Assembly: GCA_016839815.1 (NCBI GenBank)
Contig: JAEOTM010000067.1
Coordinates: 1-17,526 of the forward strand
Source of the DNA: Candidatus Hodarchaeota archaeon
GTDB lineage: Archaea > Asgardarchaeota > Heimdallarchaeia > Hodarchaeales > Hodarchaeaceae
Direction of reading: 5' to 3'
DNA length: 17,526 nucleotides
Part shown: positions 11,827-17,121 of the stretch, piece by piece
How positions within the stretch are numbered: the first letter of the stretch is position 1
Layout of the letters: the number at the start of each line of letters is the position of its first letter
The notes under the pieces: generated by a model
Told to the model about the DNA's origin: nothing
What the model saw: the letters and a program-made list of their open reading frames with translations, nothing else
The model's database searches: none
Made by a program: the position numbers and the translations under genes

Positions 11827-12207
11827 TCACTTTAATCGTGGTGGGATACTCTCCCAAATTTTTTCATTTTGTTTAATAAGAAATTCAATAGCATCAGAAA
11901 AAGTATACTCTGATTTATTACTCTCAAATTTCAGACGTCTTAAGATATCGTGAGCATCGGGCCTCAAGAGGATTGTCTTTGAACTCTTCGTTACTTTATT
12001 TTCTCCTGGATTTTTCGATTCAATTCTATGACGTTTTTCATCGAAATTTGTGAGTTCATTTTCTAAGGTTTGAGAACTATTTTGTATCTTACCATCTAAT
12101 TTTAGGAGAACATCACTATAAGATTTCTCCTTTAGCTCAAATTTTGCCCAGCGTAGCATTTCCCATGCCTTACTAGAAATCTTAACATTTTGGGCTTCTT
12201 TTGACAC
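11827..12207 (-). CDS. Tandem-duplicated ribbon-helix-helix (VapB/CopG-like) DNA-binding protein
   Basis: Two internal repeats: NVKISSKAWEMLRWAKFE..KSYSDVLLKL and TILLRPDAHDILRRLKFE..YTFSDAIEFL, both matching the archaeal RHH pattern TI.I...A...L...K....SFSD.I..L. GTG start with GAGGT RBS. Confidence 0.75.
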   Translation of the reverse strand: MSKEAQNVKISSKAWEMLRWAKFELKEKSYSDVLLKLDGKIQNSSQTLENELTNFDEKRHRIESKNPGENKVTKSSKTILLRPDAHDILRRLKFESNKSEYTFSDAIEFLIKQNEKIWESIPPRLK

Positions 12208-12244
12208 AAGTCTTACCTCTTCTGAATATTATTGTTCCATTCAC

Positions 12245-12254
12245 TTTTATAAAA
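12245..12254. promoter_or_regulatory. Palindromic TATA-like element TTTTATAAAA between divergent genes
   Basis: About 38-47 nt upstream of the RHH start codon and abutting the repeat array. Confidence 0.5.
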
Positions 12255-12334
12255 CTTTCGGGTGTTACGGGTATTTCGTAAGGTATATATATGGCATGTG
12301 TTACGTATGTTACATGAATTCCATGTATAACTTC
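12254..12334. repeat. Degenerate tandem array of nine 9-bp units, consensus TRTTACRTR (putative operator)
   Basis: Units in exact 9-bp register: ACTTTCGGG, TGTTACGGG, TATTTCGTA, AGGTATATA, TATGGCATG, TGTTACGTA, TGTTACATG, AATTCCATG, TATAACTTC. Confidence 0.75.
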
Positions 12335-12376
12335 TCATCTGGAATTCAATAAATAAAAGGAAAAAGTGAACTAAAA

Positions 12377-12730
12377 ATGAGTGACTTTGAAGATTTAGAT
12401 TTTGATCTTGAAGAAACAGCAACTGTGAAGGCTAAAACACCTGCACAGTCGAAAACACCCGTAACTGGGGTTCAGGCTGGTCCAAAGAAGAATATTTTCT
12501 TTAAATCAACTGTTGGTCCAGAGAGAACTGAAAAACTCTCCGTTGGTGAAAACACTCCTGTGAGAGACGTCCGAGATACTCTAGCAAATATCTTTGGATT
12601 AGATCCTGATGATTTCCATCTTTCTCACGCTGGAAGAACTCTTGACGAAAGTGCTCCAATAGGTGAGTATGGAATAGAAAATGGTGATGAAATCCTCTTA
12701 ATTCCCCAGTCAACTGCAGGTTGGAATTAA
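12377..12730 (+). CDS. Ubiquitin-like modifier 1 (beta-grasp; acidic N-tail; C-terminus STAG-WN)
   Basis: Ub-like AGRTLDESAPIGEYGIENGDEILL; G115 followed by a 2-residue extension; first gene of the E1-E2-JAMM-RING cluster. Confidence 0.88.
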   Translation: MSDFEDLDFDLEETATVKAKTPAQSKTPVTGVQAGPKKNIFFKSTVGPERTEKLSVGENTPVRDVRDTLANIFGLDPDDFHLSHAGRTLDESAPIGEYGIENGDEILLIPQSTAGWN

Positions 12731-12892
12731 TCAGAGGATTAATTCACATTTTCTCAATTTTTCTAATAGGAAAATCCCACTTACAAATAAATCCAGAATT
12801 AAACTCTACTCTTCCGATTAAACAGTATTTAATTAAAAATTCAGATAGATATTTATGGATTGATTGTTATGAAAATGATTGTATTCTCGCTA

Positions 12893-12908
12893 CAGATTTT
12901 AAAATCTG
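12893..12908. promoter_or_regulatory. Perfect 16-bp palindrome CAGATTTTAAAATCTG with TATA-like core
   Basis: Directly visible; 72-87 nt upstream of the likely Ubl2 ATG, in a 249-bp intergenic gap. Confidence 0.5.
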
Positions 12909-12979
12909 GAACACCTTCATTATCAACAGATGAGAGTTTTCCAGATCTTATCCTAGAGAATACAAGGAACGATGTAATC

Positions 12980-13330
12980 ATGTCGGAAAATGAAGAGTTT
13001 ATTGAATTTGAGGAAGAAGAGGAGGAGGAACAAACTGATCCATCAATTCAATCCAAAGTTCCACGATCCAAGGTTCCAAGTGGAGAGCGAATTTCATTAT
13101 TCTTTCGGTCGACAATTGGACCAGGGGAAAAACAAGAAAAACTAACAGTTGACCCTGAGATGCCTGTTCGGGAACTAGCGGAGACAATTGGGGAAATTTT
13201 TGCATTAGATCCACAAGATTTTCACCTTTCAATCAGTGGTCGAACTCTGGATACTGATGATGTTTTATCGAATTACGATCTTGAAAATGGGTTAGAAGTT
13301 CTTATTATTCCTGTAAGTACTGCAGGTTAA
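12980..13330 (+). CDS. Ubiquitin-like modifier 2 (116 aa; acidic N-tail; ends STAG-stop)
   Basis: 42 of 78 aligned core positions identical to Ubl1 by manual count. Start moved from 12860 to ATG 12980 because MSENEEF parallels MSDFEDL, the lengths then match (116 vs 117 aa) and AAGGA lies upstream. Confidence 0.88.
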   Translation: MSENEEFIEFEEEEEEEQTDPSIQSKVPRSKVPSGERISLFFRSTIGPGEKQEKLTVDPEMPVRELAETIGEIFALDPQDFHLSISGRTLDTDDVLSNYDLENGLEVLIIPVSTAG

Positions 13331-13354
13331 ATTATTCTTAAAGGTGGATTCACT

Positions 13355-14593
13355 ATGTCAAATTTCACGAGTAAAACGCTGTCAAAGGAAGAAAAAAGAC
13401 GCTTTGATCGTCAATTTCGACTTCCTGGATGGAATCAAGAGATTTTAAAACAAAGCTCTGTCCTGATAGCAGGGATCGGAGGTTTAGGAGTAGAAATCGC
13501 TAAAAACCTAGCCATGGTTGGTGTTGGGCACTTAGTACTCGTGGATCTTGATACAATTGAATATTCTAATTTAAATAGACAGATATTGTTTATTGGCGCT
13601 CCTGAAGGTGCTCCAAAAGCTGAAATGGCTGCAAAAAAACTTCGGGAGTTGAATCCCTTTATCAAAGTTGATGCGTTTAATTGTCCCCTCCAAGATGTTC
13701 CTCCTCACATTTATAGTGAGGTTGATCTGTATATCGGAGGCCTTGATTCTATTGAAGCACGTTCGGAATTAAATCGCAGAGCAGTACATAATAAGAAATT
13801 TCTTATCGATGCAGGCACAGCGGTCTATAATGGACACGCGTATGTGGTTTCTCCGTTTAACAATGCATGTTTGGAGTGTGATCCATTAACTGAAAGGGCA
13901 CAGGATCAACTTGGAGCATGTACACTGGTGGGAAAACCTCGTAGACCTGCTCATTGCATACTTAAGGGACAATTACATTTTGAACAGAAGAAAGGAAGAC
14001 CAGTCAACATTTTACATTCAAATGAAGTTCAAGAAGTTGTAGCTTATGCAAACAAGCTTTTGAGGAAACACTTCCCTCGGGAAGACCCCTTTTCTGTGAA
14101 TCAGGTTATCCAGATCATTGACAACCATGAACCTACTGTTATTACCATTAATTGTGTTATGGCATCAATTCAATCCCAAGAAGCAGTTAAGATATTACAT
14201 CATCTTCGCACACCTAAGACAGAGGATAGTTTAGGTAGTATCCAATTGAATTATCTCATATATAATGGTTTAACAGGAAAATTTTACGAAATAGAAAAAC
14301 CTCGAAATCCTAAATGCGAAATGTGTGGAGAACGCAGAACCCCTATTTACCGTATTAAGGTAAAGAAAAAATATCCTCTAGTACAGTTAATAAAAAGATT
14401 CTCTGAGGATAAAAAGTACCCTATTGATTCTGAATTTCCCCCAACGATTTTTAAAATTGATTCTTCTGAACTTGGGGAAATTTCTTTAGAGCAAACTGTA
14501 TCCAAAGCAGGAATCAAGGATTGTGAGACTGTTCTTGTGACAGGTTTTGATGATGGATCACAAGTCTACCTTACATTAAAATTGGATGGTTAA
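13355..14593 (+). CDS. Ubiquitin-like activating enzyme E1 (ThiF/UBA family, UBA3-like architecture)
   Basis: RFDRQ, GIGGLG, DLDTIEYSNLNRQ, Zn pairs CLEC (172-175) and CEMC, catalytic Cys189 in ACTLVGKPRRPAHCI, probable C-terminal ubiquitin-fold domain. RBS AAGGTGG. Confidence 0.93.
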   Translation: MSNFTSKTLSKEEKRRFDRQFRLPGWNQEILKQSSVLIAGIGGLGVEIAKNLAMVGVGHLVLVDLDTIEYSNLNRQILFIGAPEGAPKAEMAAKKLRELNPFIKVDAFNCPLQDVPPHIYSEVDLYIGGLDSIEARSELNRRAVHNKKFLIDAGTAVYNGHAYVVSPFNNACLECDPLTERAQDQLGACTLVGKPRRPAHCILKGQLHFEQKKGRPVNILHSNEVQEVVAYANKLLRKHFPREDPFSVNQVIQIIDNHEPTVITINCVMASIQSQEAVKILHHLRTPKTEDSLGSIQLNYLIYNGLTGKFYEIEKPRNPKCEMCGERRTPIYRIKVKKKYPLVQLIKRFSEDKKYPIDSEFPPTIFKIDSSELGEISLEQTVSKAGIKDCETVLVTGFDDGSQVYLTLKLDG

Positions 14594-14599
14594 TATATT

Positions 14600-15127
14600 A
14601 TGTCGATTCGCATTAAACGTATTGCAGAAGATTATAATCAATTAAAAACCCTCTACAAGCAGAAAACAATTAAACAGTTGAAAGCATTTCCTGGAGAGAA
14701 AAAAAGCGTTGAGCACATAGCTGTACTGCTTGAAGGACCCAAAGGAACCCCCTATCAAGGGGGGAAGTTTATGCTTGAAATTAAGTTTGGACCAAATTAC
14801 CCATATTCTCCACCTTTTGTCCGTCTCCATACTCCAATTTGGCACCCGAATTTCTGGCCAAAACCAGACGAATATAAAGGAAAACGAAATATTTGTCTTG
14901 GATTAGTGGATCCCGACTTAATTGGAAAACCACAAGGATGGTCTCCATCAAAAAATATAACTACGGTAATTTATTCAATTTTAGCCATGTTTAATATTGA
15001 CGAGGCTTACACTAATCCTCATGATGTTTTTAACAAGAAAGCGGCAATGGAATATCTAAAGGATAAAGGAAAATTCAAAGAAAAAGCACGAAAAATTACC
15101 AAAAAATACGCAAAGAAGAAGTGGTAA
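14600..15127 (+). CDS. Ubiquitin-conjugating enzyme E2 (UBC fold)
   Basis: GPKGTPYQGGKF, NYPYSPP, WHPN (HPN at 82-84), sole Cys99 in NICL, WSP, and FNKKAA. Confidence 0.94.
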   Translation: MSIRIKRIAEDYNQLKTLYKQKTIKQLKAFPGEKKSVEHIAVLLEGPKGTPYQGGKFMLEIKFGPNYPYSPPFVRLHTPIWHPNFWPKPDEYKGKRNICLGLVDPDLIGKPQGWSPSKNITTVIYSILAMFNIDEAYTNPHDVFNKKAAMEYLKDKGKFKEKARKITKKYAKKKW

Positions 15128-15172: not shown

Positions 15173-15985
15173 ATGCCAAGTAAAAAGGATTCTCAAACAA
15201 AAAATTTGTTTGAATTGCTTCTCAGAGATACTGCTATGAACTATAATCCTGATAACTCCACTTTAACTTTAAAATTTCCAACAGCTTCTGAAACCAAAGA
15301 AGTTCCTCAAACAGAGGAAACTCTCACCTTAAAAAAGGATATCTCAGATCAGAGAGAACAGATACAAGAAGATGATGACCTAGACCCTGAGGTTGATCCA
15401 GTTAGAGTTAAAATTCAATTAAGAGCTTACATTCGACTTAGCCTTCATGCGTTAAAGTATGCCAATTCTTCTATTCCACAATCAGAGTGGGTTGAAGTCA
15501 TTGGCCTTTTGACAGGTCATATCGAAAACAAAGATACACCACTTGCGTGCTTGGTAATAACCGATGCATTTCCTGTAGGACATGGAACGAATGTGAACGC
15601 TGAAATCGAGGACCCCCAAAGTATGGTTCGAGTATTTAACGAAAGTCGGAAAAAAAGGGAATTAATACTTGGATGGTATCATTCACATCCTTCATATGGA
15701 GCATTCATGAGTTCGACTGATTATCGAACACAAGTTCGATATCAAAGACTAGGGACAAAAGGATCTCAGCTTTCTGCACCAATAGCTCTTGTTATTGATC
15801 CAACTAGAATATCTAGACGAACTTATGGTTTTAAAATCTTCAGATTGAAAAAAGATTTGAAAAACTGGGAAGAACCTCGCTATGAAGTTTTAAATTGTCC
15901 TTTAGAAAGTCTTCCTGAATTAATCAATACACTACTACCCTTAGCAGAAGGGAAAACGATGTTCTTAGAATATGATTATGAATGA
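15173..15985 (+). CDS. JAMM/MPN+ metalloisopeptidase (Rpn11/CSN5-like)
   Basis: E108 in EVIGLL; GWYHSHPSYGAFMSSTD (H170, H172, S180, D183); TQ..YQ; ALVIDP; ~75-aa charged N-terminal extension. Confidence 0.93.
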   Translation: MPSKKDSQTKNLFELLLRDTAMNYNPDNSTLTLKFPTASETKEVPQTEETLTLKKDISDQREQIQEDDDLDPEVDPVRVKIQLRAYIRLSLHALKYANSSIPQSEWVEVIGLLTGHIENKDTPLACLVITDAFPVGHGTNVNAEIEDPQSMVRVFNESRKKRELILGWYHSHPSYGAFMSSTDYRTQVRYQRLGTKGSQLSAPIALVIDPTRISRRTYGFKIFRLKKDLKNWEEPRYEVLNCPLESLPELINTLLPLAEGKTMFLEYDYE

Positions 15986-16008: not shown

Positions 16009-17121
16009 TTGGTCGGAAGAAATGTTTATATCTCCGTTTTTCTTACGGGATTGGTCTTTGCAATCTTAAGCCAAATTGCTAACCCGGAAACTACGGCCTC
16101 TATCACACTAATTTATATTTCAATTGTAAGTATCTTATTGATTAAGCTCATAGACGAATGGCGTTATTATCGTTCATATAATGCCCCTCTTGCATCAGCC
16201 ATTTTTGTTACCGTACCTGCTGTAATTGCAATTGGGGGATCTCTAATTGCGTTTTCCGCAACATTAGGAGATCAAGAAAATTTTCTACAGAATTTATTGA
16301 TAGAGATGAGTCTGAATTTAGAAGTACTCCAATTAGAGTCTTTTTATCTATATCTAAACTTATTTAGTTTATTCTTCTGTTTACCTTTCTTCATCATTCT
16401 ATCAATCGTATTTAGACGATACTATTCAGGACGGTATCCTAATATTTTCATTTATAGACGTCGATTTCCATCCGAGTCATTAATTGCCCTTAATGTTGGT
16501 ATTCTGATAATCTTTATAGTTTTCTGGTTTGATCAAAAAACAATAGAGATTAGTTCTTTATTATTCCTACTCTTCACTATTCTGACCTTTATTCAAAATT
16601 ATATTATGAAATTCGTCATCATCCCATTTAGACGTAGTCCTAGGCCTTCAAGAAGTGAATCCTTTACACGAAGAAGATCAACTAGTCCTTCACAGGTTTC
16701 TAGGACAACTACTCAATCGAATTCACGAATCTCTCCCACCAGTAGATCTCAAAATGCTATTAGAAGCACTCCACGAAGATCGACGATCCATATAGCGCCA
16801 CCAGTCCAAGTTACAAGAAGAAAAAAACGAAAATTGACCCCTGCACTTATAGCGAGCTTAACCCCAGCAGGTCAGAATATTACAATGGAAAATTTTCGCT
16901 GCATTCAATGCTATGAATATCTAACTGACACCGAAAGACAAGTTGTCATCTGTCCTCACTGTAAACATCCCAGTCATGCAGATGAGTTTCAGAAATGGCT
17001 GGAAGTTTCCAATATTTGTAGTCGGTGTAATAAACCAATTAATACAGTAAAAATGATCAGGATTTCGGGGCCGAGTTATCAGAAAATAATTCAAATGTTT
17101 CGGAAGAAGTACAACAATTAA
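16009..17121 (+). CDS. Polytopic membrane protein with C-terminal RING-H2-like finger (putative E3 ligase)
   Basis: About 6 hydrophobic helices (aa 1-207), Arg/Ser-rich linker, then CIQC-x13-CPHCKHPSHADEFQKWL-x5-CSRC. TTG start, exact start uncertain. Confidence 0.82.
   Translation: MVGRNVYISVFLTGLVFAILSQIANPETTASITLIYISIVSILLIKLIDEWRYYRSYNAPLASAIFVTVPAVIAIGGSLIAFSATLGDQENFLQNLLIEMSLNLEVLQLESFYLYLNLFSLFFCLPFFIILSIVFRRYYSGRYPNIFIYRRRFPSESLIALNVGILIIFIVFWFDQKTIEISSLLFLLFTILTFIQNYIMKFVIIPFRRSPRPSRSESFTRRRSTSPSQVSRTTTQSNSRISPTSRSQNAIRSTPRRSTIHIAPPVQVTRRKKRKLTPALIASLTPAGQNITMENFRCIQCYEYLTDTERQVVICPHCKHPSHADEFQKWLEVSNICSRCNKPINTVKMIRISGPSYQKIIQMFRKKYNN

Follow-up and report, generated by a model that had tools for sequence, protein, structure and literature searches.

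A probable ubiquitin-like precursor and its candidate JAMM maturase in an operon of a Hodarchaeota archaeon

In eukaryotes, SUMO, NEDD8, UFM1, Atg8 and the last unit of polyubiquitin are made with short, poorly conserved C-terminal extensions whose removal exposes a glycine, a single one in the case of UFM1 and Atg8. The maturation of such modifiers is carried out by cysteine proteases of the ULP/SENP, UCH, UfSP and Atg4 types. The ubiquitin gene of Caldiarchaeum subterraneum encodes a nine-residue propeptide past the Gly-Gly motif; the Rpn11-like JAMM protease CsRpn11 removes this propeptide from the modifier (CsUb), and uncut CsUb is refractory to E1 (PMC5654768, PMC6043591), in line with what an earlier note on the DNA studied here had stated about this protease. 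In assays of CsRpn11, an Ala at the penultimate position strongly slowed processing, and bulky residues just past the cut (Cys79Glu, Gly80Trp) blocked it (PMC6043591). Among Asgard archaea, a pro-ubiquitin of Helarchaeia ends in GG-SPKN, and its describers took off the extension to make the tag active (bioRxiv 10.1101/2023.07.25.550441). In the literature that we searched for the modifier family described below, which ends in Ser-Thr-Ala-Gly (STAG), or for its tails, no description was found.

Ubl1, Ubl2 and their operon

The DNA analyzed here (the window) is a stretch of 17,526 nucleotides, positions 1 to 17,526 of contig JAEOTM010000067.1, from a Candidatus Hodarchaeota archaeon of the order Hodarchaeales, the Asgard group to which the names of close homologues also point. 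It contains an operon with the gene order Ubl1-Ubl2-E1-E2-JAMM-RING-like, all on the + strand and tightly packed from Ubl2 through the JAMM gene. Ubl1 (12377..12730, +) is an ATG-initiated open reading frame for a 117-residue modifier of the ubiquitin family, scoring above the curated cut-off of the Pfam ubiquitin model (PF00240; 33.6 versus 25.4 bits). Its 116-residue paralogue Ubl2 (12980..13330, +) scores 18.9 bits, under that cut-off, and the two proteins are 52% identical across 93 residues. For neither was a Pfam match to the Ufm1 family found at E<=0.01. We placed the start of Ubl2 at the ATG at 12980 (MSENEEF...) and not at the TTG at 12860 because its orthologues begin with MSENE.

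Re-reading of the two gene ends bore out the difference between the paralogues described in the earlier note, whose residue numbers (G115 of Ubl1; E108 and H170 of the JAMM) were also correct. Positions 12710-12730 of Ubl1 read TCA ACT GCA GGT TGG AAT TAA, that is S112 T113 A114 G115 W116 N117 and stop, and a second in-frame TAA follows at 12740-12742. The S-T-A-G motif with the predicted conjugating glycine, G115, thus occupies 12710..12721 (+), and the putative two-residue propeptide with its stop codon 12722..12730 (+). Ubl2 ends in AGT ACT GCA GGT TAA (13316-13330) and is translated in what would be its mature form, STAG-stop. The assignment of G115 draws on the conservation of the motif and on an end-to-end alignment with CsUb, in which residues 46-115 of Ubl1 match residues 10-79 of the 88-residue chain 2mqj and G115 falls on the final residue of the mature Caldiarchaeum modifier. 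Ubl1 therefore encodes residues past a glycine that aligns with the terminal glycine of a characterized modifier, as a ubiquitin-like precursor does.

The remaining genes complete the likeness to Caldiarchaeum, where a modifier with a short propeptide past the conjugating Gly is likewise encoded in an operon with an Rpn11-like JAMM, an E1, an E2 and a RING protein. In the window these are an E1-like activating enzyme of the ThiF family (13355..14593, +; PF00899, 175 bits), an E2-like conjugating enzyme (14600..15127, +; UQ_con, PF00179, 94 bits), an Rpn11-like JAMM metalloprotease that is a candidate for both tail removal and deconjugation (15173..15985, +; Pfam JAB, 59.1 bits) and a membrane protein without a Pfam match whose C-terminal end is Cys/His-rich and RING-like (16009..17121, +). 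The differences lie mainly in the modifiers. The di-glycine C-terminus of canonical ubiquitin and CsUb is replaced by Ala-Gly in Ubl1, the tail comprises two residues (WN) with a bulky Trp at P1' in place of nine, there are two paralogous modifiers, and both begin with an acidic extension, some 36 residues long, that CsUb lacks. The Helarchaeia modifier is also an operon-encoded Asgard protein with a short C-terminal extension, but it has a di-glycine end, is a single modifier and belongs to another Asgard class.

The spacer between Ubl1 and Ubl2 (12731-12979) is 249 nt long, with oligo-T runs just past the Ubl1 stop (ATTTTCTCAATTTTTCT), and that between Ubl2 and E1 measures only 24 nt; the former ranges from about 110 to 800 nt in relatives. 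Ubl1 may be a separate transcription unit. A promoter and terminator scan of 12200-13400, which models bacterial signals only, gave nothing above chance. In some lineages a conserved open reading frame of about 70 aa lies between the modifier gene or genes and E1 (L055:5459-5671, +; L058:5497-5709, +), with the common motif ...DPD[LF]TI.SADYYIK...; no counterpart was found in the window. A 70-aa open reading frame at 12721-12933, overlapping the tail codons, is unrelated to it, and we took it as spurious.

Distribution and turnover of C-terminal tails

Because a change of one base, TGA to TGG, would suffice to create the tail, we considered an assembly or sequencing error at the Ubl1 stop codon. 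Four further genomes of the same clade encode STAG-WN (G054, G049, G052) or STAG-WR (G053), and the metagenome proteins P0001 (representing a 51-member cluster), P0002 and P0003 end in WR, WN and WGK, respectively. Since five genomes, each assembled independently, and several protein clusters from metagenomes agree on this TGG, the tail is no sequencing slip, and the chance of an artefact is negligible. The check on orthologues proposed in the earlier note gave a divided answer: the closest orthologues keep the extension, and more distant ones in the genus stop at the Gly.

A homologue search with Ubl1 returned 66 homologues, and of 83 genomes searched in the class to which the window's genome belongs, 55 have the modifier, with the tandem Ubl1/Ubl2 pair in nearly every genome of the window's genus. 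Pooling the homologues with all fetched loci gave 100 distinct C-terminal sequences. STAG is present in 98 of them and SSAG and SIAG in one each, so that all 100 end in Ala-Gly. Half stop directly after the Gly; the other 50 carry 42 distinct tails, of one (5), two (32), three (5), four (2), five (5) or twelve (1) residues. Tails often begin with a bulky residue (W 6, F 6, I 5, L 4 and Y 4 of 50). As far as sequences can tell, such a combination of a fixed reactive motif with a short, hypervariable and dispensable extension is the signature of a ubiquitin-like precursor. The 12-residue tail belongs to the metagenome homologue P0050 and is unusually long and basic (AGKKVPIKFKTK); relatives of this protein bear the tails AGRVA, AGLFR and AFRR.

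A maximum-likelihood tree of concatenated E1, E2 and JAMM sequences from 17 genomes of the genus restricts the Ubl1 tail, within the genus, to a single clade with 100/100 support (the window's genome G000, with G052, G053, G054 and G049), throughout which Ubl2 has no tail. In the other genus clades Ubl1 is tail-less, with TGA or TAA straight after the Gly codon, and Ubl2 ends in SIN, FDF, SSNRS, I, IYY, IK, L, Y or no tail. The genus thus comprises five genomes with a tailed Ubl1, eight with a tailed Ubl2, four with a tail on neither paralogue (G060, G061, G065 and G048) and none with a tail on both. Outside the genus, L054 has the tail FE on Ubl1 and a tail-less Ubl2, and both modifiers are tailed in L055 (RY and KI) and L028 (K and VW), one being a metagenome operon and the other a genome of the same class. 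There are also operons or genomes in which the sole STAG modifier is itself tailed, among them L056 (IN), L023 (AI), L024 (RGY) and L030 (WI).

Comparison of close relatives indicates that the tails are altered by single-base mutations of stop codons on either paralogue. The Ubl2 genes of the sister genomes G067 and G057 read ATC TAA TAC TGA (tail I) and ATC TAC TAC TGA (tail IYY), and in G055 a CGA in place of the TGA of relatives lengthens the tail from three to five residues. For the WN tail itself, Ubl1 of genus clades A and B ends in GGA TGA where the window has GGT TGG, and L013 reads TGA GGT CAG TAA, in which a change of TGA to TGG would yield W-G-Q, close to the WGK of P0003. An origin of WN by stop loss from TGA to TGG is plausible, yet TAA stands at this place in the nearest outgroups, whose 3' flanks are unalignable, and we did not adopt it. 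In the DNA set the observed tails have a median length of two and a maximum of five residues, and a median of 11 would be expected if the tail-less genes lost their stop codons. Selection thus seems to remove long extensions, although the formal p-value overstates the contrast, the genes compared being related. Asp and Glu are missing from the first tail position (0 of 50). We did not use this as a sign of protease constraint; by eye, the first post-stop codon of tail-less genes never encodes them either, so composition may explain it.

Two loci encode in-frame head-to-tail fusions of STAG modifiers, resembling eukaryotic polyubiquitin (L057:2386-3129, +; L058:4628-5432, +). The first reads ...IPQSTAG-AG-DDFEDF...IPHSTAGLN and has an in-frame TGA in unit 1, at a conserved FF[KRQ]ST position. 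The second reads ...IPHSTAG-S-DDEDDFD...IPHSTAG, with a second unit that lacks an initiator Met, and has a 100-N scaffold gap within unit 1. If real, these fusions would, like polyubiquitin, have to be resolved by an endopeptidase, here one cutting after STAG. A third candidate (L059:734-1165, +) repeats the L057 junction on a contig that looks chimeric or palindromic, and was not counted as independent.

The window's genome also encodes, on contig C135, an 80-aa ubiquitin of canonical type that ends in TTGG-TNR (L051:1480-1722, -), next to a second E1, a 373-aa ThiF-type protein (L051:233-1354, -). By its sequence this protein is another precursor in the same organism.

The operon JAMM and other proteases of the genome

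The JAMM encoded in the operon has a complete Glu...His-x-His-x7-Ser-x2-Asp motif, with E108, H170, H172, S180 and D183 invariant in 17 orthologues. Its nearest solved chains are Rpn11 (8amz_V, 1.2e-12), CSN5b (9is6_E) and CsRpn11 (6fjv_A; CsRpn11 chains match at E 1e-11). It is closer to this group than to SAMP-type JAMMs, and Prok-JAB scores below JAB. The gene adjoins the modifiers in every assembled operon of the genus, tail-less ones included, which fits deconjugation as its primary role and maturation as a second activity. N-terminal to the catalytic domain, residues 1-76 (15173-15400) contain a motif of which F13, E14, L17, R18, D19, P26 and T32 are invariant in the 17 orthologues, joined to that domain by a linker whose length varies between some 30 and 75 residues. 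This motif may serve in docking.

We modelled the JAMM domain (residues 76-270) together with Ubl1 (residues 36-117) in three runs. The complex scored 0.89, against 0.38 for the best control, and passed a mark that 58 of 80 solved complexes and 2 of 110 mismatched pairs attained; at least 96% of the contacts were common to the runs, and the partner pLDDT was at least 89. In the model, JAMM residues 108, 170 and 180-183 contact Ubl1 residues 107-117, and the G115-W116 bond is placed at the metal site. Since Rpn11-ubiquitin and CsRpn11-CsUb complexes have been solved, this outcome may mirror likeness to them only, and it is proof of neither binding nor cleavage. The cut site itself, with Ala at P2 and Trp at P1', counts against easy trimming, judging by the CsRpn11 assays. 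For the operon JAMM to do the trimming, its pocket would have to be unlike the one in CsRpn11.

The genome was also searched for proteases of other types. Unlike in eukaryotes, no cysteine maturation proteases were found: Peptidase_C48, C78, OTU, UCH and C12 all gave no hit in the genome searched, which is 89.5% complete, and for four of these families, C78 (UfSP) among them, the control genomes gave no signal either. Two further genes with JAB domains are present. One, on contig C112, encodes 302 aa (L049:1498-2406). The other, on contig C122, encodes a 192-aa JAB protease (L050:1330-1908, -) directly beside a second E2-like gene of 183 aa (L050:1983-2534, -); an Arf-like small GTPase (L050:1-447, +) lies near this pair.

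Readings of the Ubl1 tail

With two residues past its reactive glycine, Ubl1 probably has to be trimmed before it can act. We consider it likely that Ubl1 is a precursor that loses WN, and the foremost candidate for removing them is the operon JAMM. Under this proposal, Ubl1 would be made as a 117-residue protein in which Trp-Asn blocks the carboxylate of Gly115, and WN would have to go before the operon E1 could adenylate it; by analogy with CsUb, untrimmed Ubl1 would be inert toward E1. Trimming would most likely fall to the Rpn11-like JAMM three genes downstream, an enzyme that probably serves mainly to untag targets. Cleavage after G115 and the identity of the protease are both inferred. 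Ubl2, translated with a free Ala-Gly end, would not require trimming. The asymmetry between the two would then be a recent, lineage-specific state, in which tails of one to five residues are gained, lost and rewritten by point mutations of stop codons on either paralogue, and these tails would be tolerated thanks to the constant presence of a hydrolase able to cut after STAG. Operons whose sole modifier is tailed, and the fusions between modifiers, count in favor of the view that some processing of this kind would have to exist.

Who does the trimming is a separate question, and we regard it as unlikely that another JAB-domain protein of the genome or an unspecific carboxypeptidase takes this part. 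A tail of two residues is within the reach of carboxypeptidases, the genome has three JAB genes of which one sits beside a second E2, and bulky residues right past the cut site block CsRpn11. Against this, the operon JAMM alone is syntenic with STAG modifiers in all genomes, the complex model sets the G115-W116 bond at its metal site, and in-frame fusions of modifiers call for an endopeptidase and not a carboxypeptidase; in Caldiarchaeum, moreover, the JAMMs are each specific to their own modifier (PMC6043591). It is very unlikely, by contrast with the trimming that both of these alternatives assume, that the tail is never removed and that Ubl1 of this clade is a non-conjugatable protein acting non-covalently as a decoy or adaptor, an option that the earlier note had also raised. 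By analogy with CsRpn11, Trp at P1' may make a poor substrate, and Ubl2 could handle conjugation alone. Within the WN clade, however, pairwise dN/dS of Ubl1 is 0.04-0.08 at a dS of 0.63-0.88, a sign of strong purifying selection, and synonymous differences occur in the codons for T, A and G of STAG (ACT/ACC, GCA/GCT, GGT/GGA) with no change of amino acid. The reactive end has thus stayed under selection since the tail arose, a point against a decoy; in addition, the orthologues of sister clades are tail-less and hence conjugatable, and some operons have a tailed modifier as their only one.

The earlier note had gone beyond a precursor and proposed a two-modifier switch, in which conjugation of Ubl1 is gated by the JAMM and Ubl2 is always ready. 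The precursor half of that proposal gains indirect support from the invariant Gly motif, the variable tails, the tailed sole modifiers and the intact, Rpn11-like operon JAMM, at whose active site the tail is modelled; the switch half is not supported. As an exploited design we find it quite improbable, including in a weaker form in which one gated and one ungated tag are needed and the tailed gene is interchangeable. What speaks for it is that exactly one paralogue is tailed in 13 of the 17 genus genomes and both in none, a tally that reflects few independent events; that the window's clade gained a tail on Ubl1 while its Ubl2 is tail-less; that Trp116 is conserved clade-wide; and that the gap of 249 nt after Ubl1, as opposed to the tight packing from Ubl2 to the JAMM, would make separate expression possible. 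However, the tail changes from one paralogue to the other inside a single genus, the JAMM is kept in four genomes without any tail, and the hypervariable sequences of the tails are unexpected for a regulatory element. A rule of exactly one tailed paralogue, which we rejected, is broken by those four genomes and by the doubly tailed L055 and L028. All four tail combinations occur, and the sequences do not support the two-modifier switch as a conserved design. Codon 116 is TGG in all members of the clade at a dS of 0.6-0.9, and codon 117 varies (AAT or AGG), which weakly suggests some constraint on the first tail residue. We give a slim chance to the idea that the tails are a selected, interchangeable gate that hops between paralogues and keeps one modifier JAMM-dependent and one JAMM-independent. 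The gate may then have moved from Ubl2 to Ubl1 in the window's clade, a preferred hydrophobic first residue such as Trp116 may tune the rate of cleavage, and maturation rate would be a regulatory layer of this archaeal ubiquitin-like system.

Most likely, then, Ubl1 is an ordinary precursor, a putative pro-Ubl with a candidate JAMM maturase, of a kind known from Caldiarchaeum. Biochemical work on this operon should use a Ubl1 that lacks WN or is incubated together with the JAMM, and should not treat its asymmetry with Ubl2 as a regulatory design that is conserved. Asgard ubiquitin-like systems attract study as forerunners of their eukaryotic counterparts, and this locus adds a family of tags that end in Ala-Gly, about half of whose members have short precursor tails and in which fusions resembling polyubiquitin are also seen. 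Taken together, these features suggest that one JAMM served both maturation and tag removal before eukaryotes recruited cysteine proteases.
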